From: Escherichia phage vB_Eco_BCPEco_001
Length of the DNA: 64,000 nt
Sequence record: PV295200.1
Reading direction: 5' to 3' (one strand)
Under the pieces are notes generated by a model. It searched no databases. It was not told where the DNA came from and saw nothing but the letters and a program-made list of their open reading frames with translations. Numbering within the stretch: position 1 is the stretch's first letter; the number at the start of each line of letters is the position of its first letter. The translations under genes were made by a program, and so were the position numbers. Positions 95-61,273 of this stretch are shown here, piece after piece.

Positions 95-3000
95 CTATTT
101 TAACCTGTGTTGGATTTTCAGGGTCTCTTGGATTTCCTATATTGTCTTTTAGACGTTTATTAACTAAATCTCTAAATTGTGCAAATGTTGTTCCAGAAGC
201 ATCAAATAGAGGACTCATTAATTTACGTCGTTCAGACGGCAATTGACCTTGAAACATTGAATTATTATTTTCAGCATTATAGTCATCAGGAAGAGGATAT
301 TCTACACCAGCCATTGGGCCAGGTTCATAAATTGCTTCTCCTGTTACTGAATCATGTTCAATTTCGCCAGTTGGAGTTAATTTAGCTACTCTATCAGCAT
401 ATTCAGTAGGCAATCCAGAATCCCATTTGTAGTTTTTGTATTTATTAATTATAGTCTCTGTGTGTTTAAGAGTTAAACCAACATTAATAAACATCGTTAA
501 AAGGGTAATTGCTATAAATCCAAATCCTACTGGATGAACAAAACGAATAACGTCAGATTTCCAGCGAGAAGAAGGTAAATTGGATTTAATTTTCATTACA
601 TAATATGATCGGCTTCTATTAATATAGTCTATATTATTTTGAAGCAAATCCTTTCCTTTAACCCCACGAATAATTTCGCCTTCAAAACTAGGAAGTCTTT
701 CTGCTTTAACTTCTTGACCAGCAATTAATCTTCCCAAAAGATTATGAATAGTTACGGTCCATTGCAATTTACCATTAGAATAACTTCTTTCTATATAAGT
801 AACATTACATCTTCCTGTGGATGTATAAATCGTTTGTCCTACTAAATCTTCAGTCAAAGAATCAGATTGAACGATTATGTCATATTCAGTACCAGCCCCA
901 GATTCAATTTCAATTTCAACTTCTTCATTATAAAGAACTTTAAAAAGAAACTTGTATGATGCTTCAATTCCTTTAGTAGAATAAAAATCATAGCTACGTG
1001 ATTCAAAAAATCTTGCAACAGCATCTCGCTTATCCGCGTTCAAATAAATGTTTCTTTTATATATCTCTGACCACAAATATTCCCATGCATGCTCTTCTCG
1101 TGGATACTGATTACGAATTAAATTTCGTAAATTGTTATACTGAGTTCCATATCCATCAGAAAGATACTGAATATATGCTTCGCAAAATGCCTCAAAATTC
1201 GAATCCTGCAACAAATAAGAATCAGGCATCATTGTGCCAATTAATGGTCTTAAATCAGGATCAGCTAATCCATGCTCTTCTTCTGGTGACCAAGGAGTCT
1301 CATGCTCTTGGTTTTGTAAAAATGCTTTTAAAAATACTCCAGTCGGCTTCCAAATAATTTCTACTGTATCTCTCACACGATAGTTAAAATCATAGTAAGA
1401 AATTATTTCACCAGAGGCTTTATAGAAAAGCATTCCTGATGCATATTTTTTAAATCCAGTGAATTTAACATTTGGCATTACTATAGTGCAATCACCATCA
1501 TCCCAGTATTCATGAACTAATCTATCTGGTGATGTTTCCGGAATATTTTCTATAACTTTAGTGTATTTTAAATCAGCATAAACTACTACAGCTCTATCAG
1601 AATTGTTTATCCAACAGCGTGTGTTAGATTTTTTAGACCAGTTAAAGAACGGTTCTGCGTAGTATTTCATTGGTTGAGGAGTAAAAGTCTCCCAATCAGA
1701 TTTTTCATCCGCTATAAATGCCATCATATGATAATGCTTATCAGCTAACCATTCACGAGGAAATTCATATTTAACAGCACCGATTAACTGATATTTTGCT
1801 GCAGTTTCAGGGTCATTAACAATGTTATCACTTAAAAATTTAAAATTACTCGAAGATAGAGAAACTAATTTACCGTCAGTTGACATATTCGCATATCCGG
1901 GTTGAATACGTCTTCTTTCTTCTTCGGTATTACCGAAAACTCTTTTCCATGTTTTTTCGTCATGATTTAAAACATATATTCCTTTATCAGCAGAATCAAT
2001 TATTTTTGAAGTTCTCGGATTGGCATTTAATGTTTCAACTTCACCAATAATAAGAGCAAAAACTTTATCACCGATAGAATCCATTTTATAGCATACTGCT
2101 TTAGGATTTCCAGTTATAGTCATTGTATCAGGTTCAAAAAGTCTTTCCGAATATGTTGGAGATAATGGATCAGAATCTATAGGTGCATTACTCGTTTTTA
2201 TGTATCTAACTTTATCTCTGGCGACAACGTAAATGTAATCATCGGTGCAAGTAATAGCTTCTGCAATGCGGTATACATTCGCTGGTAAAGTCGCGTAAGT
2301 GGCAAAAATTTCTACATCAAACCCTAGATGCAATTGGTCACCAAGTTTAGCAAATGTTATATCATGCGAACTAAATCTGACATCATCGGCTGACCATCTA
2401 ACATCAGTAGATTTACGGCCGTAGAAAATCTTGTCGTATCCTAGAACGTATGTCGTGTTTGCAGATTGGTAATATACTGTCTTAGATAAAGGATATCCTA
2501 CACGGTCATTGAAGAGCTTTACAGCTTTCCAGGTTTGTCCTTTATCATTAGATACTTTAACCACGGGTTGATAACGCTCAAAAAGATATAGAATCCCTTC
2601 TGATTCCATCAAATAAACTCGGTTAATATCCTTACATACTTGCTGAATGGAACCTTGTATTTCATGATACTCATTTTCACCAATAATAAAATTACTGATT
2701 GATGAAACATCAACATATGATGGGCTGAATTGGAACGATTCATTCATCAATGCAGCCATTATAGTGTCATTATTAAAATTGACATAATTAGAATTGTTAA
2801 GAGTAAATTTTTCCTGAATGAATTTATTGGCTAATTGCATTTCAATCATGTTTTGAAATGTGTAAGCATTCGTAGCAAAAGTTTCAAACTCTTCCGTATA
2901 AACCCAATCAGATTGCTCAAAATCTTGTGCAGCTGTAGCTACTCTAATGATGTATGATGTTAGTGGATCAGCATCATCAAAAAAGAAACTATTGTTTGCT

Positions 3001-3185
3001 GTATATCCTAAATTAATCCAACGATATTGATCACTCGGGAGATTTTCCCCCGAGTCTGTTTTTGTCTCAGCGATTTCTACAAAATAGTAGAAATTAGCAC
3101 CAACGTCATCCCAGCGTACTTGCACCTGATTTGCGGATAACTTGGAAATTCTGAGACTAGTGACTGAAGGTGCTTTTACTGTCAT
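87..3185 (-). CDS. 7: baseplate wedge protein gp7
   Basis: 1032 aa ORF, same length as T4 gp7; synteny 5-6-7-8; stop overlaps gp8 start. Confidence 0.85.
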   Translation of the reverse strand: MTVKAPSVTSLRISKLSANQVQVRWDDVGANFYYFVEIAETKTDSGENLPSDQYRWINLGYTANNSFFFDDADPLTSYIIRVATAAQDFEQSDWVYTEEFETFATNAYTFQNMIEMQLANKFIQEKFTLNNSNYVNFNNDTIMAALMNESFQFSPSYVDVSSISNFIIGENEYHEIQGSIQQVCKDINRVYLMESEGILYLFERYQPVVKVSNDKGQTWKAVKLFNDRVGYPLSKTVYYQSANTTYVLGYDKIFYGRKSTDVRWSADDVRFSSHDITFAKLGDQLHLGFDVEIFATYATLPANVYRIAEAITCTDDYIYVVARDKVRYIKTSNAPIDSDPLSPTYSERLFEPDTMTITGNPKAVCYKMDSIGDKVFALIIGEVETLNANPRTSKIIDSADKGIYVLNHDEKTWKRVFGNTEEERRRIQPGYANMSTDGKLVSLSSSNFKFLSDNIVNDPETAAKYQLIGAVKYEFPREWLADKHYHMMAFIADEKSDWETFTPQPMKYYAEPFFNWSKKSNTRCWINNSDRAVVVYADLKYTKVIENIPETSPDRLVHEYWDDGDCTIVMPNVKFTGFKKYASGMLFYKASGEIISYYDFNYRVRDTVEIIWKPTGVFLKAFLQNQEHETPWSPEEEHGLADPDLRPLIGTMMPDSYLLQDSNFEAFCEAYIQYLSDGYGTQYNNLRNLIRNQYPREEHAWEYLWSEIYKRNIYLNADKRDAVARFFESRSYDFYSTKGIEASYKFLFKVLYNEEVEIEIESGAGTEYDIIVQSDSLTEDLVGQTIYTSTGRCNVTYIERSYSNGKLQWTVTIHNLLGRLIAGQEVKAERLPSFEGEIIRGVKGKDLLQNNIDYINRSRSYYVMKIKSNLPSSRWKSDVIRFVHPVGFGFIAITLLTMFINVGLTLKHTETIINKYKNYKWDSGLPTEYADRVAKLTPTGEIEHDSVTGEAIYEPGPMAGVEYPLPDDYNAENNNSMFQGQLPSERRKLMSPLFDASGTTFAQFRDLVNKRLKDNIGNPRDPENPTQVKIDE

Positions 3186-5164
3186 TGTGATATAGGCTCC
3201 AAATCGATAGTTAAGTATTGCGGACGTAAATCATTTTCAAATACAATCAGTGAACCATCACGGGTAAAGATAACATCATCGGTTGGGTCAGAATATAATT
3301 CAATAGTCTGAACCTCAAATTTTTCAGATGTTAAATTAATTTTAGCGATATTCCAATAAATCATGTCAGTCGGATAATTTATTTCACCGATAACATAGTA
3401 TTTGTCGCGTCCATCAGAATTTGCTAATTTATTAAAATCATTGCCTGTATATGGCTGAATGTTTTCATTTTCTGTAACATCGCCAGAAGCAAATGGACCA
3501 ATAATAACTTTACCAATTCCTTTAGAATCTCGGTCTGTTGATACTATACGAACATCATATAATACATCTTCTTCTAAACCAGTATCAGGATTTACAACCT
3601 TTCGTCCAGAATTAAATGAAAACGTATTAGATTCCATAGAACGATCTTTTATTTGATTATTATATTTAATACCCGCTTCAGGCGTTTTATAGAAGTTTTG
3701 TACTTCACGAACCATTTGAATAGTCGCTGATGAACCAATGACAGAATGATCTGCATCATCTACATATGTCAACATCTTAGATTTAGCGAAAGACGAGTTA
3801 AAAATTTCTACATCTTCGGTATAATAGCGATCAATTTTATCAATTATTTGACCTTCAAGCCACTGTTCGGATTCTTGCAGCTTATTTAAAGCATATGTGA
3901 CTTTTAAATTAGTCTTAATAAAAAGGTAATTAGGAGAAATAATTGATGGTGTAATAGGAGCTAAATTATAGTCTTTGAGATAATTTTTAATATCTTCACG
4001 CTGTACGGTAGTTAAATACAGACCTGATTTAGGTTTAGCAGCAATAAATGCATACCCAGGTTTAGTAGAATCAGTGAAAGTTTGAACAGCTTGAATAATA
4101 GAACCAAATCTCTCTGAAACGAATGTATCATAGTCAGTCGCAGTTACGCATCGTTGCTGGGTTTCGCGTTTAATAGTACCCAATTCGCGAATACGCTCAA
4201 TATCTTCTGGATCACCGCCTCCATCTGCCCCAACAAAATCTGGGTCACCGTTTGGATTTTCATTAATATTGATGACAGTTATATTTGTTAATGTGTCTGC
4301 GTATGAAAATCCGACTGCTCCGTTCGCGTCAGCACCATTAGTACTAATGTACTCAATAACAATCGTAGAGTTCTGAGTAGGTTTAAGACCTCCAATATAA
4401 TTAGCAGTCAAAGCTCCTTCAGAAGCATTAACAGAAATTTCACCTTCACCAAAATAGAATTCAGTGTTTCCATCAATAGTTTCACGCATATAGTAAATCG
4501 TTGATGTTGAACCAGCATGAACCATTGACTTTCTCGTCCAGTTAATCCATTCCGCTCCATCAACATATAATTTAACCTGGTTTCTATCAATATTTTTATC
4601 ATAAATGATAATAGGTGTTAATTTATCATAAATGATTTCAGTTCTTACTATACGTCCCTGGGCCAATTTTAAACGTGGAAAATATTGGTTATTTTTATCA
4701 CGAATAGCAATAACGTCTTCGGTAGAAACGAAGTTATATGGATTAACAGAAGTATCTTTTGCATATGCTAAAAAGCGAGTTCCGCGAGGAATTGTAATGT
4801 AATTCCTATTCAATGCGTCGGTGCATGTTAACATAATTTCGGTTTGCGCAGCGGATTTTGAAGTAGGTAAATATCCGTTATCTTGTGCAGCTTGAACAAC
4901 TGAGCTTCGTAAGTTAGCAGTACGCATAAAGCTTTCATATACAGCAGCATTACCAAACTGCTGAATGTACAGCGTATTATAAGCCAAAAGGTCACACAGA
5001 ACGTTTAATCTTGAGCCTTCAAAATCATAATCCAAAAATTCATTTTGGCCATTAAGCCATTCAATGAGGTTTTGTTTTATTTCAGCAAACGTACCCCCGA
5101 CGAATATCTCGGGAATAGCATTTGCTGTTCTTGTTAATTGATAATTTACAGGGGTATTTGCCAT
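3182..5164 (-). CDS. 6: baseplate wedge protein gp6
   Basis: 660 aa ORF, same length as T4 gp6; ATGA overlap with gene 7. Confidence 0.85.
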   Translation of the reverse strand: MANTPVNYQLTRTANAIPEIFVGGTFAEIKQNLIEWLNGQNEFLDYDFEGSRLNVLCDLLAYNTLYIQQFGNAAVYESFMRTANLRSSVVQAAQDNGYLPTSKSAAQTEIMLTCTDALNRNYITIPRGTRFLAYAKDTSVNPYNFVSTEDVIAIRDKNNQYFPRLKLAQGRIVRTEIIYDKLTPIIIYDKNIDRNQVKLYVDGAEWINWTRKSMVHAGSTSTIYYMRETIDGNTEFYFGEGEISVNASEGALTANYIGGLKPTQNSTIVIEYISTNGADANGAVGFSYADTLTNITVININENPNGDPDFVGADGGGDPEDIERIRELGTIKRETQQRCVTATDYDTFVSERFGSIIQAVQTFTDSTKPGYAFIAAKPKSGLYLTTVQREDIKNYLKDYNLAPITPSIISPNYLFIKTNLKVTYALNKLQESEQWLEGQIIDKIDRYYTEDVEIFNSSFAKSKMLTYVDDADHSVIGSSATIQMVREVQNFYKTPEAGIKYNNQIKDRSMESNTFSFNSGRKVVNPDTGLEEDVLYDVRIVSTDRDSKGIGKVIIGPFASGDVTENENIQPYTGNDFNKLANSDGRDKYYVIGEINYPTDMIYWNIAKINLTSEKFEVQTIELYSDPTDDVIFTRDGSLIVFENDLRPQYLTIDLEPISQ

Positions 5165-56229: not shown

Positions 56230-58926
56230 ATGAAAGAATTTTATATCTCTATTGAAACAGTCGGAAATAACATTGTTGAACGTTATATTGATGAAAACGG
56301 AAAGGAACGTACTCGTGAAGTAGAATATCTTCCGACTATGTTTAGGCATTGTAAGGAAGAGTCAAAATACAAAGACATCTATGGTAAAAACTGCGCTCCT
56401 CAAAAATTTCCATCAATGAAAGATGCTCGAGATTGGATGAAGCGAATGGAAGACATCGGTCTCGAAGCTCTCGGTATGAACGATTTTAAACTCGCTTATA
56501 TCAGTGATACGTATGGTTCAGAAATTGTTTATGACCGAAAATTTGTTCGTGTAGCTAACTGCGACATTGAGGTTACTGGTGATAAATTTCCTGACCCAAT
56601 GAAAGCTGAATATGAAATTGATGCTATCACTCATTACGATTCAATTGACGATCGTTTTTATGTTTTCGACCTTTTGAATTCAATGTACGGTTCAGTATCA
56701 AAATGGGATGCAAAGTTAGCTGCTAAGCTTGACTGTGAAGGCGGTGATGAAGTTCCTCAAGAAATTCTTGACAGAGTAATTTATATGCCATTCGATAATG
56801 AGCGTGATATGCTCATGGAATATATCAATCTCTGGGAACAGAAACGACCTGCTATTTTTACCGGTTGGAATATTGAGGGGTTTGACGTTCCGTATATCAT
56901 GAATCGCGTTAAAATGATTCTGGGCGAACGTAGTATGAAACGCTTCTCTCCAATCGGTCGAGTAAAATCTAAACTAATTCAAAATATGTACGGTAGCAAA
57001 GAAATTTATTCTATTGATGGCGTATCTATTCTTGATTATTTAGATTTGTACAAGAAATTCGCATTTACTAATTTGCCGTCATTCTCTTTGGAATCAGTTG
57101 CTCAACATGAAACCAAAAAAGGTAAATTACCATACGACGGTCCTATTAATAAACTTCGTGAGACTAATCATCAACGATACATTAGTTATAACATCATTGA
57201 CGTAGAATCAGTTCAAGCAATTGATAAAATTCGTGGGTTTATCGATCTAGTTTTAAGTATGTCTTATTACGCTAAAATGCCTTTTTCTGGTGTAATGAGT
57301 CCTATTAAAACTTGGGATGCTATTATTTTTAACTCATTGAAAGGTGAACACAAGGTTATTCCTCAGCAAGGTTCGCACGTTAAACAAAGTTTTCCGGGTG
57401 CATTTGTATTTGAACCTAAACCAATTGCTCGTCGATATATTATGAGTTTTGACTTGACGTCTCTGTATCCTAGCATTATTCGTCAGGTTAACATTAGTCC
57501 TGAAACTATTCGTGGTCAGTTCAAAGTTCATCCAATTCATGAATATATCGCAGGAACAGCTCCTAAACCGAGTGATGAATATTCTTGTTCTCCGAATGGA
57601 TGGATGTATGATAAGCATCAAGAAGGTATCATTCCAAAGGAAATCGCTAAAGTATTTTTCCAGCGTAAAGACTGGAAAAAGAAAATGTTCGCTGAAGAAA
57701 TGAATGCCGAAGCTATTAAAAAGATTATTATGAAAGGCGCAGGGTCTTGTTCAACTAAACCAGAAGTTGAACGATATGTTAAGTTCAGTGATGATTTCTT
57801 AAATGAACTATCGAATTATACTGAATCTGTTCTCAATAGTCTGATTGAAGAATGTGAAAAAGCGGCTACACTTGCTAATACAAATCAGCTAAACCGTAAA
57901 ATTCTTATTAACAGTCTTTATGGTGCTCTTGGTAATATTCATTTCCGTTACTATGATTTGCGAAATGCTACTGCTATCACAATTTTTGGCCAAGTCGGTA
58001 TTCAGTGGATTGCTCGTAAAATTAATGAATATCTGAATAAAGTATGCGGAACTAATGGTGAAGATTTCATCGCAGCAGGTGATACTGATTCGGTATATGT
58101 TTGTGTAGATAAAGTTATTGAAAAAGTTGGTCTTGACCGATTCAAAGAGCAGAACGATTTGGTTGAATTTATGAATCAGTTCGGTAAGAAAAAGATGGAA
58201 CCTATGATTGATGTTGCATATCGTGAGTTATGTGATTATATGAATAACCGCGAGCATCTGATGCATATGGACCGTGAAGCTATTTCTTGCCCTCCACTTG
58301 GTTCAAAGGGCGTTGGTGGATTTTGGAAAGCGAAAAAGCGTTATGCTCTGAACGTTTATGATATGGAAGATAAGCGATTTGCTGAACCACATCTAAAAAT
58401 CATGGGTATGGAAACTCAGCAGAGTTCAACACCAAAAGCAGTGCAAGAAGCTCTCGAAGAAAGTATTCGTCGTATTCTTCAGGAAGGTGAAGAGTCTGTC
58501 CAAGAATATTACAAGAGCTTCGAGAAAGAATATCGTCAACTTGACTATAAAGTTATTGCTGAAGTAAAAACTGCGAACGATATAGCGAAATATGATGATA
58601 AAGGTTGGCCAGGATTTAAATGCCCGTTCCATATTCGTGGTGTGCTAACTTATCGTCGAGCTGTTAGTGGTCTGGGTGTAGCTCCAATTTTGGATGGAAA
58701 TAAGGTAATGGTTCTTCCATTGCGTGAAGGAAATCCGTTTGGTGACAAGTGCATTGCTTGGCCGTCAGGCACAGAACTTCCAAAAGAAATTCGTTCTGAC
58801 GTACTGTCGTGGATTGACTACTCAACTTTGTTCCAAAAATCGTTTGTTAAACCGCTTGCGGGTATGTGTGAATCGGCTGGTATGGACTATGAGGAAAAAG
58901 CTTCGTTAGACTTCCTGTTTGGCTGA
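56230..58926 (+). CDS. 43: DNA polymerase gp43 (family B)
   Basis: 898 aa; MKEFYISIETVGNNIVERYIDENGKERTREVEYLP matches T4 gp43 from memory; polymerase motifs DLTSLYPSII and AAGDTDS. Confidence 0.95.
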   Translation: MKEFYISIETVGNNIVERYIDENGKERTREVEYLPTMFRHCKEESKYKDIYGKNCAPQKFPSMKDARDWMKRMEDIGLEALGMNDFKLAYISDTYGSEIVYDRKFVRVANCDIEVTGDKFPDPMKAEYEIDAITHYDSIDDRFYVFDLLNSMYGSVSKWDAKLAAKLDCEGGDEVPQEILDRVIYMPFDNERDMLMEYINLWEQKRPAIFTGWNIEGFDVPYIMNRVKMILGERSMKRFSPIGRVKSKLIQNMYGSKEIYSIDGVSILDYLDLYKKFAFTNLPSFSLESVAQHETKKGKLPYDGPINKLRETNHQRYISYNIIDVESVQAIDKIRGFIDLVLSMSYYAKMPFSGVMSPIKTWDAIIFNSLKGEHKVIPQQGSHVKQSFPGAFVFEPKPIARRYIMSFDLTSLYPSIIRQVNISPETIRGQFKVHPIHEYIAGTAPKPSDEYSCSPNGWMYDKHQEGIIPKEIAKVFFQRKDWKKKMFAEEMNAEAIKKIIMKGAGSCSTKPEVERYVKFSDDFLNELSNYTESVLNSLIEECEKAATLANTNQLNRKILINSLYGALGNIHFRYYDLRNATAITIFGQVGIQWIARKINEYLNKVCGTNGEDFIAAGDTDSVYVCVDKVIEKVGLDRFKEQNDLVEFMNQFGKKKMEPMIDVAYRELCDYMNNREHLMHMDREAISCPPLGSKGVGGFWKAKKRYALNVYDMEDKRFAEPHLKIMGMETQQSSTPKAVQEALEESIRRILQEGEESVQEYYKSFEKEYRQLDYKVIAEVKTANDIAKYDDKGWPGFKCPFHIRGVLTYRRAVSGLGVAPILDGNKVMVLPLREGNPFGDKCIAWPSGTELPKEIRSDVLSWIDYSTLFQKSFVKPLAGMCESAGMDYEEKASLDFLFG

Positions 58927-58939
58927 TAGAATAAATCTA

Positions 58940-58960
58940 GGGACCTCCGGGTCCCTTTTT
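58940..58960 (+). terminator. rho-independent terminator after gene 43
   Basis: gggacc tccg ggtccc followed by ttttt. Confidence 0.65.
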
Positions 58961-59025
58961 CATACAAGTAATATAAATCTATACTTATGAAAAACAGATG
59001 ATTCTGGACCTTTAGAATTCCCTAA

Positions 59026-59073
59026 AAATTTTTTCACAAAGTTGTTTACATCCCTGTTCTTCCATGGTACTAT
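59026..59073 (+). promoter_or_regulatory. early promoter with conserved leader (near-identical to 30772-30854)
   Basis: aaaaattttttcacaaagttgtttacatccctgttcttccatggtactatacaactatcaactgatacggatttggagaatgaaATG. Confidence 0.6.
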
Positions 59074-59107
59074 ACAACTATCAACTGATACGGATTTGGA
59101 GAATGAA

Positions 59108-59488
59108 ATGAAAATCGCTATTTTGGTTATTGCATTAGGTCTTACTGGTTGTGTAGCTCAAGGACCGGTAGTAAATCAGTCTGATGCAGGAAAAATTGTA
59201 AACTGTTCAAGCAAATTTTATAATCCTAATGTCAAGTGTTATAAAGAAGCTCCAAAGCAAACAGTAGAACAAATGCAGGCGAATTTTGACGAAGCTATTC
59301 GTCCAGATGAATCTGCTCAAGCATATCGTAATTCAGATGTAATTACACGCGAAGAAAAAATTGAAAACTACTGCGCTGAACTTTGGGCAAATTGGGCTAA
59401 TAATTACCAGTGGCGTACAGGTAAAAATGCTCCGATGGAGTATGTAGTGAATTCTTATAATTCATGTGTAAAAAATTTGACTAAGTGA
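59108..59488 (+). CDS. putative lipoprotein
   Basis: 126 aa from MKIAILVIALGLTGC (lipobox LTGC); the track ORF 59042 is an extension through the promoter. Confidence 0.5.
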   Translation: MKIAILVIALGLTGCVAQGPVVNQSDAGKIVNCSSKFYNPNVKCYKEAPKQTVEQMQANFDEAIRPDESAQAYRNSDVITREEKIENYCAELWANWANNYQWRTGKNAPMEYVVNSYNSCVKNLTK

Positions 59489-59495
59489 GGAAAAC

Positions 59496-59747
59496 ATGGA
59501 AACTTTAGTAGCAGGTTCAATTTTTATGGTTTTAGTTTCAGGTGTGTTGGCTATTATTATATACATGCTTCCATGGTTTATCGCCTTGATGCGTGGGTCA
59601 AAATCGACAGTAGGAATCTTTTTCACATCTTTACTGTTTAACTGGTCAATTATTGGTTGGTTTATTACATTTATTTGGTCAATTGCGGGTGAAACTAAAA
59701 AGTCTGTACAGCCAAATCAAGTAATTATCATCAGAGAGAAGGAATGA
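59496..59747 (+). CDS. imm: immunity to superinfection membrane protein Imm
   Basis: 83 aa, two TM helices; METLVAGSIFMVLVSGVLAIIIYMLPWFIALMRG matches T4 Imm from memory. Confidence 0.85.
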   Translation: METLVAGSIFMVLVSGVLAIIIYMLPWFIALMRGSKSTVGIFFTSLLFNWSIIGWFITFIWSIAGETKKSVQPNQVIIIREKE

Positions 59748-59893
59748 AAAGCAAAATTATAGCAGCATTGCTTTTAATCTTGATGGTTATAATAAGTATA
59801 TACTATAGCGTAACAGTTCCTGCTATGATTCCAACTCTTATCATAGGGTGGGGTTTATTACTGTTACAATTTAAATATGAATGCATCAATTGA
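59744..59893 (+). CDS. small hydrophobic membrane peptide
   Basis: 49 aa ORF MKSKIIAALLLILMVIISIYYSV..., ATGA-coupled to imm; below the track cutoff. Confidence 0.4.
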   Translation: MKSKIIAALLLILMVIISIYYSVTVPAMIPTLIIGWGLLLLQFKYECIN

Positions 59894-59900
59894 GGTTTAA

Positions 59901-60641
59901 ATGATTAATGACTCTATGACAGTTGAAGAAATCCGTCTTCATTTGGGGCTTGCATTAAAAGAAAAAGATTTCGTAGTTGATAAAACTGGCGTTAAAACTA
60001 TTGAAATTATTGGCGCATCATTTGTAGCAGATGAACCGTTTATTTTTGGCGCTCTTAATGATGAATACATTCAGCGTGAACTTGAATGGTATAAATCTAA
60101 GAGCTTGTTCGTTAAAGATATTCCGGGTGAAACACCGAAGATTTGGCAACAAGTAGCATCTTCTAAAGGTGAAATTAACTCGAATTATGGCTGGGCTATC
60201 TGGTCAGAAGATAACTATGCCCAGTATGATATGTGTTTAGCTGAACTTGGTCAAAATCCTGATTCTCGACGTGGTATCATGATTTATACTCGTCCATCTA
60301 TGCAGTTTGACTACAATAAAGATGGTATGTCAGATTTCATGTGTACTAATACAGTACAGTACCTGATTCGTGATAAGAAAGTCAATGCAGTTGTTAATAT
60401 GAGAAGCAATGACTGCTGGGCAGGCTATCGTAATGATTATGCATGGCAAAAATACGTACTAGATAAATTAGTATCTGATTTGAATGCAGGCGACCCATCG
60501 CGGCAATATAAAGCAGGTTCTATTATATGGAACGTTGGAAGTCTTCATGTGTACGAAAATCAGTTTTATTTAGTTGACCATTGGTGGAACACTGGTGAAA
60601 CTCATATTGCTAAAAAGGATTATACTGGAAAATGGAAGTAA
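59901..60641 (+). CDS. 42: dCMP hydroxymethylase gp42
   Basis: 246 aa as in T4 gp42; thymidylate-synthase-like fold motifs; SD GAGG. Confidence 0.9.
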   Translation: MINDSMTVEEIRLHLGLALKEKDFVVDKTGVKTIEIIGASFVADEPFIFGALNDEYIQRELEWYKSKSLFVKDIPGETPKIWQQVASSKGEINSNYGWAIWSEDNYAQYDMCLAELGQNPDSRRGIMIYTRPSMQFDYNKDGMSDFMCTNTVQYLIRDKKVNAVVNMRSNDCWAGYRNDYAWQKYVLDKLVSDLNAGDPSRQYKAGSIIWNVGSLHVYENQFYLVDHWWNTGETHIAKKDYTGKWK

Positions 60642-61273
60642 ATGTGCCACATGTTTATAAGTATAAACATCCTAAAACTAAAAAGTGGTATATAGGAAGT
60701 CATGATGGTCACAACCCAAATTATGATGGTTCGGGTGTAGTTTGGCAACATGCTAAAAAGAAATATGGAATAAAATCCTTTAATAAAGAAATATTATATG
60801 AAGGACCAATGTTTAGACAGGTTGAAGAAATTATTTTAACTTGTTTAGATGCTGCTAATTGTCCGGATTCATATAATTTAAAGAATGAAGCATGGGGAGG
60901 AAGTTTTCCAGGCAAATTAAATGGAATGTACGGTAAAAAACTATCTCCAGAAGAAAGATATAAGTGCGGAAATGCCTTTCGTGGAATCAAGCGTCCTGAT
61001 CATTCTAAAAGAATGAAAGGCGAAGGTAATCCAATGTATGGTAAAAATGAGCAGGCATATGGAATTATAAATCGAGCAAAGGAAAATTCTGGTAAAACTT
61101 ATGAAGAAATTTTTGGCGCAGAAAAAGCTAAAATAATTAAAGAAACGATGTCTAAAAATCGTAAAGGAAAACCTCATAATTTGATAGAAAAAATATGTCC
61201 GCATTGCGGACTAAAAGGACGTGGGCCAAATATGACAAGATACCATTTTGACAAATGTAAGGCACTTAAATGA
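60632..61273 (+). CDS. GIY-YIG homing endonuclease (Seg-like)
   Basis: 213 aa; KKWYIGSHDGHNPNYDGSG GIY-YIG-type N-terminus; basic C-terminus with CPHCG zinc-finger-like motif; overlaps the gene 42 end by 10 nt. Confidence 0.6.
   Translation: MEVNVPHVYKYKHPKTKKWYIGSHDGHNPNYDGSGVVWQHAKKKYGIKSFNKEILYEGPMFRQVEEIILTCLDAANCPDSYNLKNEAWGGSFPGKLNGMYGKKLSPEERYKCGNAFRGIKRPDHSKRMKGEGNPMYGKNEQAYGIINRAKENSGKTYEEIFGAEKAKIIKETMSKNRKGKPHNLIEKICPHCGLKGRGPNMTRYHFDKCKALK

Follow-up and report, generated by a model that had tools for sequence, protein, structure and literature searches.

The imm locus of a T-even Escherichia phage, a lipoprotein that accompanies the superinfection immunity protein, and a possible role for it in the periplasm

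The 64,000-nucleotide stretch of Escherichia phage vB_Eco_BCPEco_001 analyzed here (PV295200.1, hereafter the window) carries, close together on the + strand at 59108–59893 and 3' of gene 43, three genes that the RB32 annotation names imm.1, imm, and 42.1. A sequence-only reading of this DNA had proposed the arrangement lipoprotein, Imm, and 49-amino acid peptide, and it was correct to the base, with the imm.1 ATG at 59108 and the final stop base of the 49-amino acid ORF at 59893. The locus is 100% identical in DNA sequence to that of Salmonella phage BCPSen_003 and shares 97 to 99% identity with T6, RB32, and some 500 further genomes, and it is the canonical T-even stretch between genes 43 and 42 of a T6/RB32-like Tequatrovirus, an anatomy about which we have almost no doubt. 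All three are known and annotated Tequatrovirus genes, and as ordinary T-even genes they therefore do not amount to a novel feature. The packed run continues with gene 42, encoding dCMP hydroxymethylase (59901–60641, + strand), which provides the context for 42.1. Genes, order, spacing, promoter, and terminator are shared with the imm.1-imm-42.1 loci of T4, T6, and RB32 (UniProt Y02D_BPT4, IMM_BPT4, and Y02C_BPT4), from which the imm.1 and imm proteins differ here by 0 to 3 residues, and 42.1 differs from the T4 copy at 6 of 49 residues. In T4, imm.1 carries an additional base at its end, which costs it the last lysine and opens an alternative 94-amino acid imm frame, a form that is ruled out in our phage because of an in-frame TGA at 59478–59480. 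In addition, gene 42 is followed here by an ORF for a Seg-like endonuclease, which RB32 lacks.

Directly after the gene 43 stop codon (58926) there is a terminator-like G+C hairpin followed by a T-run (58939–58956, + strand), with a 7-bp stem containing five G-C pairs and the tail TTTTTCATACA; it is kept in T4 and RB32, and it separates the imm.1 transcription unit from gene 43. The sequence-only reading had placed a strong early promoter in front of the lipoprotein gene, and a T4-type early promoter, GTTTACA-N17-TACTAT, is present at 59044–59073 (+ strand); its extended -10 position is occupied by TG, and an A5T6 tract lies upstream. The pattern GTTTAC-N16-18-TAnnnT occurs 19 times in the window, where 2.6 copies are expected, and none of 100 shuffles attained 19; 17 of the 19 copies are on the + strand, and several have the identical sequence GTTTACA...ATGGTACTAT. 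Nearly all of the T4-like loci that we fetched have a copy of the motif in the corresponding position, and in other genera it is kept right after gene 43 whichever gene leads. Transcription from this promoter, 3' of the gene 43 terminator, proceeds through imm.1, imm, and 42.1 and then into gene 42. A middle-promoter-like site with a MotA box (TGCTTTT, 12 nt, TATAAT; 59769–59793, + strand), recognized purely as a pattern match, lies inside 42.1 and upstream of gene 42, and in the published expression classes of T4 the gene 42 and imm RNAs are of the middle class.

The imm.1 gene (59108–59488, + strand), the homologue of UniProt Y02D_BPT4, encodes a 126-amino acid prolipoprotein. The mechanical ORF begins at TTG 59042, and ATG 59108 is the true start, being preceded by GGAG 6 nt upstream and being the annotated start in T4 and RB32. 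The N-terminus MKIAILVIALGLTGC has a lysine at position 2, an uncharged hydrophobic core, and the lipobox L-T-G-C ending at Cys15. Substrates of signal peptidase II have a positive N-region, an uncharged hydrophobic core, and [LVI][ASTVI][GAS]C with the cysteine at position 15 to 35, all of which Imm.1 shows; a lipobox check by a rule of the PROSITE PS51257 type bears out the putative lipoprotein of the sequence-only reading, and imm.1 is the sole + strand ATG ORF in the window to pass. Residue +2 of the lipoprotein is valine (Val16) and not aspartate, and sorting to the outer membrane is therefore predicted. The mature protein contains a C-terminal helical hairpin and four cysteines (residues 33, 44, 89, and 120), which are predicted to pair as C33-C44 and C89-C120. 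Early expression, which had also been proposed, agrees with published T4 data, in which both the imm.1 RNA and the protein are classed as early and the protein is detected from 1 to 3 min, with label-free intensities that appear at 1 min and reach a plateau by 3 to 5 min after infection. In a published CRISPRi-ART screen, knock-down of imm.1 gave a score of -0.77 (p 0.98, 'Not Fit'), and imm scored 1.40 (p 0.022, 'Fit') in the same screen, a call that may be a polar effect on gene 42.

Imm.1 matches PF17578 (DUF5481) over positions 1 to 103 of 103 with 236.7 bits (cut-off 27, E 3e-71) and phrog_1754 with an E-value of 1.5e-43. Identity is approximately 97 to 100% across Tequatrovirus and 97 to 98% among T2, T4, and T6, and codon differences are 231 synonymous versus 41 nonsynonymous, indicating purifying selection. 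In eight genera, eight proteins encoded beside imm or in the slot of imm all match phrog_1754 (E 6e-17 to 1.5e-52), and all eight carry lipoboxes. A single-sequence homologue search returned only three near-identical clusters, and an alignment query was needed to recover the family, which comprises 27 cluster representatives among 1.84 billion proteins. Among the 19 representatives read, 18 have a lipobox and the other a plain signal peptide; aspartate at +2 occurs in none of them. The product of imm.1 is a small prolipoprotein, and its family is a narrow one that occurs in T4-like phages. The AlphaFold2 model of Imm.1 is poor overall (pLDDT 59) and poor in the N-terminal half, with residues 81 to 125 at pLDDT 85 to 90; the model of a Dhakavirus family member is a confident long helical hairpin. 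Foldseek searches against the PDB and BFVD gave no relative outside the family at E < 0.1, returning generic helical hairpins and the family itself, and nothing meaningful was found in a PDB sequence profile search, NCBIfam, or PADLOC. Our literature searches found no publication on DUF5481 and only an incidental mention of imm.1. The RefSeq product name for T4 imm.1, "iduronate sulfatase," is rejected because no search supports such a product, and the database names "immunity protein" and "iduronate sulfatase" are both without support.

Seven nucleotides past the imm.1 stop, with GAGGA 4 nt 5' of its ATG, begins imm (59496–59747, + strand; PF14373, phrog_1039), which encodes the 83-amino acid inner-membrane superinfection immunity protein. 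It matches PF14373 with 58.1 bits (cut-off 27.9), differs from T4 Imm at a single residue, and has a hydropathy profile of hydrophobic membrane helices. A 2026 preprint reports that the 83-amino acid Imm alone on a plasmid lowers T4 plating, that Imm copurifies with and directly binds the tape-measure protein gp29, and that W50A and R33A weaken exclusion, and it describes Imm as a small protein of the inner membrane that, by binding the tape-measure protein as it arrives, prevents a channel from forming; both R33 and W50 are unvaried throughout our Imm alignment. T4 Imm alone is enough to keep the genome of a second phage out, acting on the tape-measure protein of that phage, and the Imm encoded here, one residue apart, would do the same.

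The third gene, 42.1 (59744–59893, + strand; Phage_T4_Y02C), overlaps the imm stop codon with its ATG (ATGA, 59744–59747), and its own stop codon overlaps the Shine-Dalgarno sequence of gene 42. The overlap and two hydrophobic stretches (residues 1–29 and 25–43) agree with the downstream hydrophobic 49-amino acid peptide of the sequence-only reading, and 42.1 may be translationally coupled to imm. The product is a conserved, predicted 49-amino acid membrane hairpin, with two hydrophobic helices linked by a conserved P-x-M-I-P-T and a C-terminal end K-Y-E-C-I-N. It matches phrog_3610 at 47 of 47 positions (E 3.4e-26), PF26865 is found on homologues of 82 to 94% identity, and in an alignment of seven phage sequences Y20, P26, M28, I29, P30, T31, I33, W36, Q42, and C47 are invariant. 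The ORF is intact at 49 amino acids in all Tequatrovirus copies examined, including T4, although it is not annotated in the T4 reference record, which is thus missing a conserved gene. In five lineages (ST0, PM2, Q7622, LC53, and fHe-Yen9-01) the end of a gene for a SIS-domain isomerase is overlapped by 42.1, which precedes a nucleotidyltransferase/kinase gene, and there is no imm in that locus. The imm loci of Gelderland-, Jiaoda-, Moon-, and Muldoonvirus and of L025 lack the gene, and it adjoins imm only in Tequatrovirus and Dhakavirus-type loci, so that co-inheritance of the two was not found. We consider that 42.1 is probably not a partner of Imm; it would belong to the DNA-modification gene block that follows gene 43, and its overlap with imm in T-even phages would be local gene packing.

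The relationship between imm and the lipoprotein is of another kind. We surveyed loci through Imm, using the Imm loci of IMG/VR together with GenBank genomes from seven genera. A lipoprotein of the Imm.1 family lies beside imm in 26 of 26 T4-like IMG/VR loci, and it is on the same strand at a distance of -25 to 146 nt both in all loci flanked by gp43 and gp42 (24 of 24) and in the Mosigvirus loci (2 of 2). The lipoprotein likewise adjoins imm in the seven GenBank genera. Both gene orders occur, the order in Dhakavirus-type loci being imm, 42.1, lipoprotein, and the family was found in none of 54 Imm loci outside the T4-like phages. Between dmd and the primase gene, Mosigvirus ST0 has the lipoprotein gene first, then imm, and then spackle, the last identified by PF25676 (E 1e-42), and each of the three genes has an early-promoter motif; because each gene has its own promoter, this adjacency is not explained by a shared one. 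The link runs one way, as the lipoprotein can occur without imm: Mosugukvirus PM2, Kanagawavirus Q7622, and Serratia phage LC53 have the lipoprotein but lack an imm in its vicinity. No Imm homologue was found in the 145 of 170 kb of PM2 that were scanned, on either side of the late structural genes at 100–125 kb, nor in the 8–32 kb region of Q7622, and the lipoprotein therefore has a role that is independent of Imm. T4-like genomes are largely collinear, and some of the adjacency may therefore come from inheritance of gene order at a promoter slot held in common. We are confident that the imm.1-imm linkage is conserved, and our literature search found no report that imm is always accompanied by one lipoprotein family in T4-like phages.

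Our favored explanation, to which we assign a probability of roughly 0.45, is that in this T-even locus Imm.1 is a companion of imm that adds protection in the periplasm, while 42.1 belongs with DNA modification. Imm.1 would be cleaved by signal peptidase II and lipidated at Cys15, and Lol would sort it to the inner leaflet of the outer membrane, where it would expose a disulfide-stabilized helical hairpin to the periplasm. Direct contact with the inner-membrane Imm is unlikely because of the outer-membrane anchor and the short mature domain, and Imm.1 would be an evolutionary companion of imm and not an Imm subunit. It would most likely form a separate, periplasm-side layer of a very early envelope protection against further phages, working beside Spackle, which acts in the periplasm against the gp5 lysozyme, and Imm, which acts in the inner membrane against gp29. 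Taken by itself, the attribution of an exclusion-type role to Imm.1 is tentative, and we would call it rather unlikely as a single claim.

The most serious competitor is that what Imm.1 does in the envelope has nothing to do with superinfection, but lies for example in a host periplasmic or outer-membrane process or in counter-defense, and that its gene adjoins imm only via the early-promoter slot that they share after gene 43. We consider this quite possible. The lipoprotein occupies the post-gene 43 slot without imm in PM2, Q7622, and LC53, the promoter motif there is conserved regardless of the first gene, and imm.1 was 'Not Fit' in the very screen in which imm scored. Against it, what is found in Mosigvirus at the other site beside spackle, with promoters of its own, is the lipoprotein-imm pair and not the lipoprotein alone, and the adjacency of the two outlasts both gene-order inversion and extensive replacement of the remaining small ORFs there.

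The sequence-only reading went further, suggesting that the lipoprotein, Imm, and the 49-amino acid peptide could form a single three-part machine for exclusion or envelope remodeling, and this we regard as improbable. Its idea of a module larger than imm holds in that three co-oriented genes follow one early promoter, packed with a 7-nt gap and then a 4-nt overlap, that all three products are predicted to be envelope proteins, that the three genes are adjacent in Tequatrovirus and Dhakavirus-type loci, and that imm.1 and imm are linked; it does not hold for 42.1, which is apart from imm in the five lineages named above and missing from the imm loci of four genera and L025. The implication that Imm needs its flanking genes is not borne out either, since plasmid-borne Imm alone lowers T4 plating and has a defined target in gp29. 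Knock-down of imm.1 without an effect on fitness and the occurrence of the lipoprotein without imm also speak against such a machine.

It is very unlikely that the 49-amino acid ORF is no protein gene at all and owes its conservation solely to the promoter and ribosome site of gene 42. The MotA-box-like site within it, the overlap of its stop codon with the gene 42 Shine-Dalgarno sequence, its missing annotation in the T4 reference, and the 155 nonsynonymous versus 104 synonymous differences within Tequatrovirus would all fit that explanation, and we found no expression data for the ORF. However, the frame, a length of 45 to 49 amino acids, and the motif (Y, P-x-MIPT, W, Q, K-Y/F-E/N-C) are kept at 41 to 62% identity in genera where a gene other than 42 follows and the nucleotide sequence has drifted apart, hydrophobic residues are replaced by hydrophobic ones, and both Pfam and PHROGs hold the ORF as a protein family.

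T2, T4, and T6 use different receptors, namely FadL/OmpF, OmpC plus LPS, and Tsx, respectively. That Imm.1 masks a receptor in the manner of the exclusion lipoproteins T5 Llp and Cor, binding the phage's own outer-membrane receptor from the periplasm, is very unlikely, and we reject it because Imm.1 is almost invariant among these three phages, and also because it resembles no solved or predicted structure outside its family and its gene is linked to the imm and DNA polymerase genes and not to a receptor-binding-protein gene. Llp and Cor, which block FhuA, do offer a likeness, since Imm.1, too, is a small lipoprotein made early that probably sits in the outer membrane and faces the periplasm, and Llp, like Imm.1, comes from a lytic phage, but the sequence similarity is limited to the signal peptide (the PS2 homologue matches the Cor family phrog_1119 weakly, at E 8e-4, over residues 1 to 40), and an exclusion activity of Imm.1 is hypothetical only.

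Another comparator is T4 Spackle (gp61.3), which inhibits the gp5 lysozyme in the periplasm; like Imm.1, it is early, exported, small, cysteine-containing, and helical, and it belongs to the same T4 expression class, and in Mosigvirus its gene directly adjoins the lipoprotein-imm pair. The two differ in that Spackle is soluble in the periplasm and Imm.1 carries a lipobox, and in a profile comparison only their signal peptides align. The superinfection exclusion of T4 has long been ascribed to two proteins, Imm and Spackle, and to our knowledge classical screens for exclusion-defective T4 yielded imm and sp only.

How Imm works is only beginning to be understood, and the regularity described here, in which a single lipoprotein family stays with imm in either order and lies beside spackle in Mosigvirus, points to a possible link with exclusion. 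We raise, as an unlikely but specific proposal, that the Imm.1 family may be a third, hitherto overlooked component of T-even exclusion, anchored in the outer membrane and acting in the periplasm beside Spackle and Imm, where it might intercept the tail-tip/tape-measure complex or stabilize the envelope without masking a receptor. Such a role would explain why the gene for Imm.1 stays with imm across T4-like genera.

The region at 58900-59950 has a 100% match in Salmonella phage vB_Sen_BCPSen_003, its identity to phage T6, to RB32 and to about 500 further Tequatrovirus genomes is 97-99%, and the annotated order in RB32 is 43, imm.1, imm, 42.1, 42 and the beta-glucosyl-HMC-alpha-glucosyltransferase gene. 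It is therefore a known T-even locus, and imm.1, imm and 42.1 are features already known and of modest interest. The span that the sequence-only reading gave to a membrane cluster around imm, 59108-59893, matches the gene boundaries exactly. Gene 43 ends at 58926 and is followed by a G+C hairpin with a T-run (58939-58956) and then by the promoter GTTTACA-N17-TACTAT (59044-59073). Matches to the T4-style early motif GTTTAC-N16-18-TAnnnT number 19 in the window, where 2.6 are expected, a count reached in 0 of 100 shuffles; 17 copies are on the + strand and several share an identical GTTTACA...ATGGTACTAT sequence. The imm.1 gene (59108-59488 (+), ATG at 59108 with GGAG 6 nt upstream) encodes MKIAILVIALGLTGC..., which has a textbook lipobox and is the sole + strand ORF of the window to pass a PROSITE-type rule, confirming the proposed lipoprotein gene with an early promoter upstream of imm. 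The imm gene (59496-59747 (+)) has GAGGA before its start and begins 7 nt from the imm.1 stop, and the 49-aa ORF described downstream of it, 42.1 (59744-59893 (+)), does have an ATG that overlaps the imm stop (ATGA); gene 42 begins with the ATG at 59901, and its Shine-Dalgarno sequence shares bases with the 42.1 stop. A putative MotA-box, middle-promoter-like site (TGCTTTTAATCTTGATGGTTATAAT, 59769-59793 (+)) lies inside the 42.1 coding sequence, with the gene 42 start 108 nt downstream. Between gene 42 and the glucosyltransferase gene, overlapping both, is a 213-aa Seg-like homing-endonuclease ORF (60632-61273 (+)) that has a weak NUMOD3 motif and, close to its N-terminus, a KWYIGS sequence; RB32 lacks this ORF. 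Many Tequatroviruses contain about 250 bp of additional DNA between gene 43 and imm.1, which in phage U115 (1614-1948 of locus L002) includes two short ORFs (33 and 78 aa), both missing from the window.

Our main new analysis was a comparative test of the idea that these genes form a module. The ORF adjacent to imm encodes a lipobox protein in seven genera, Tequatrovirus, Mosigvirus (ST0), Gelderlandvirus (S16), Jiaodavirus (KpV477), Muldoonvirus (PS2), Moonvirus (KM16) and Dhakavirus (JS10), and all of these proteins match phrog_1754 (E 6e-17 to 1.5e-52). Eighty Imm loci from IMG/VR, gathered with the Imm alignment, were scanned with local profiles: a same-strand phrog_1754-family lipoprotein lies -25 to 146 nt from imm in 24/24 loci with gp43/gp42 neighbours and likewise in 2/2 Mosigvirus loci, and none was found in the remaining 54, which come from other kinds of phage. 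Two gene orders occur, lipoprotein followed by imm, or imm (with or without 42.1) followed by lipoprotein. In Mosigvirus the site of the pair is outside the 43-42 interval, in the stretch from dmd to the primase gene, with spackle (PF25676, E 1e-42) immediately downstream; in ST0 the lipoprotein gene, imm and spackle stand in succession (2437-3530 of locus L005), each preceded by its own copy of the early motif (2437, 2867, 3178). The IMG/VR counts, the two gene orders and the Mosigvirus site beside spackle argue that the lipoprotein gene and imm are truly linked, beyond inherited gene order. This link runs one way only, as the lipoprotein can occur without imm: it directly follows gene 43 in Mosugukvirus PM2, where no Imm homologue was found in 145 of 170 kb scanned, and it is present in Serratia phage LC53 at a locus without imm. 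In Kanagawavirus Q7622, another phage with the lipoprotein, imm is absent from 8-32 kb, a range that includes the spackle region.

Imm.1 matches Pfam DUF5481 (E 3e-71) as well as phrog_1754. Codon differences within Tequatrovirus are 231 synonymous and 41 non-synonymous for imm.1 and 157 and 36 for imm, and both genes are under clear purifying selection. The Imm.1 family is tiny, with 27 cluster representatives in 1.84 billion proteins; of the 19 whose sequence was read, 18 have a lipobox and one a plain signal peptide, and none has Asp at +2, so that outer-membrane sorting is predicted. In the AlphaFold2 model of the window protein, confidence is restricted to a hairpin of two C-terminal helices (residues 81-104 and 110-125, pLDDT 85-90), with Cys89 in one helix and Cys120 in the other, and a Dhakavirus family member is modelled as a long hairpin (helices 64-130 and 134-162, pLDDT above 90). 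Nothing informative on remote similarity came from Foldseek (PDB, BFVD), a PDB sequence profile search, NCBIfam, PADLOC or a profile comparison with Spackle, and a literature search found no paper on imm.1 function. The product is named iduronate sulfatase in RefSeq T4 (NC_000866.4, T4p046) and immunity protein in many GenBank records, names that none of the searches run supports. In E. coli infected with T4, the RNA and the protein of imm.1 both fall in the early class, and label-free intensities of Y02D_BPT4, its product, are zero before infection, present at 1 min and at a plateau by 3-5 min (PMC9697503 supplements), which for imm.1 bears out the early expression proposed for the cluster. 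Imm.1 is a real, very early and probably outer-membrane lipoprotein.

The imm product matches PF14373 and phrog_1039. According to a 2026 preprint (bioRxiv 10.64898/2026.03.06.709160), which makes no mention of the lipoprotein, imm.1 or 42.1, the 83-aa Imm alone lowers T4 plating when supplied from a plasmid, the tape-measure protein gp29 co-purifies with it, and it is weakened by W50A and R33A; both positions are invariant in our Imm alignment. On its own, Imm suffices at the inner membrane to block the tape-measure protein of an incoming phage. In T4 (locus L003, 5626-5658 (-)), one additional base at the imm.1 end gives an alternative imm frame of 94 aa, which is the version that the preprint's cryo-EM used (bioRxiv 10.64898/2026.03.06.709160), and in the window an in-frame TGA (59478-59480) closes this frame, so that solely the 83-aa form is conserved. 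In a CRISPRi-ART screen of T4 (PMC11879866), imm.1 was "Not Fit" (-0.77, p 0.98) and imm was "Fit" (1.40, p 0.022); the screen's authors explain the imm score as a population-level effect of exclusion. The non-essential imm is chained to 42.1 and the essential gene 42 (ATGA overlap, then a stop over the next Shine-Dalgarno; 59496-59901), so its score could instead reflect a polar effect on gene 42.

The 42.1 product belongs to phrog_3610, and close homologues carry Pfam PF26865 "Phage_T4_Y02C". Its codon differences within Tequatrovirus are 104 synonymous and 155 non-synonymous, with hydrophobic residues replacing hydrophobic ones and the ORF intact at 49 aa in every copy. Seven aligned phage copies have in common the motif Y-x5-P-x-M-I-P-T-x-I-x2-W-x5-Q-x-[KR]-[YF]-[EN]-C, and homologues found with this alignment are 41-94% identical to the window 42.1, which together indicate a protein gene, more than a leader sequence for gene 42. 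The ORF is conserved across genera and is intact in T4 (NC_000866.4 / AF158101.6, 26227-26376 (complement), equivalent to 59744-59893 here), where the reference records leave the 153-bp imm-42 gap empty and 42.1 unannotated. A search for expression data on 42.1 came back empty. In ST0, PM2, Q7622, LC53 and Yersinia phage fHe-Yen9-01, the gene ahead of 42.1, whose end it overlaps, encodes a SIS-domain sugar isomerase, with no imm there, and a 560-aa nucleotidyltransferase/kinase gene comes after it; 42.1 is absent from the imm locus of S16, KpV477, KM16 and PS2 and from IMG/VR locus L025. Since 42.1 accompanies the SIS-domain gene without imm and is missing from other imm loci, it is a member of the DNA-modification block that follows gene 43 and does not belong with imm; it is a predicted small membrane hairpin whose overlap with imm in the window is gene packing. 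The post-gene 43 slot of the five phages (L004, L007, L100-L102), which holds the isomerase, the 42.1 homologue and the nucleotidyltransferase/kinase, probably encodes a sugar-nucleotide route to DNA modification, within which the gene for a small membrane peptide is embedded.

The sequence-only observation is thus confirmed, and the exclusion module larger than imm that it envisaged is supported in part: the lipoprotein-imm pairing is conserved, 42.1 follows other genes, and Imm suffices alone. For Imm.1 the most likely reading, tentative at a probability of roughly 0.3, is that it would protect against further phage attack as an additional, independent layer in the periplasm; a function with no connection to superinfection has about the same likelihood. 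A receptor mask is rejected, because Imm.1 is 97-98% identical in T2, T4 and T6, which use different receptors. Spackle inhibits the gp5 lysozyme (PMC7677548), and Llp of T5, an outer-membrane lipoprotein, reshapes FhuA (PMC9586334). The conserved lipoprotein-imm pair is the one concrete, testable lead from this locus.
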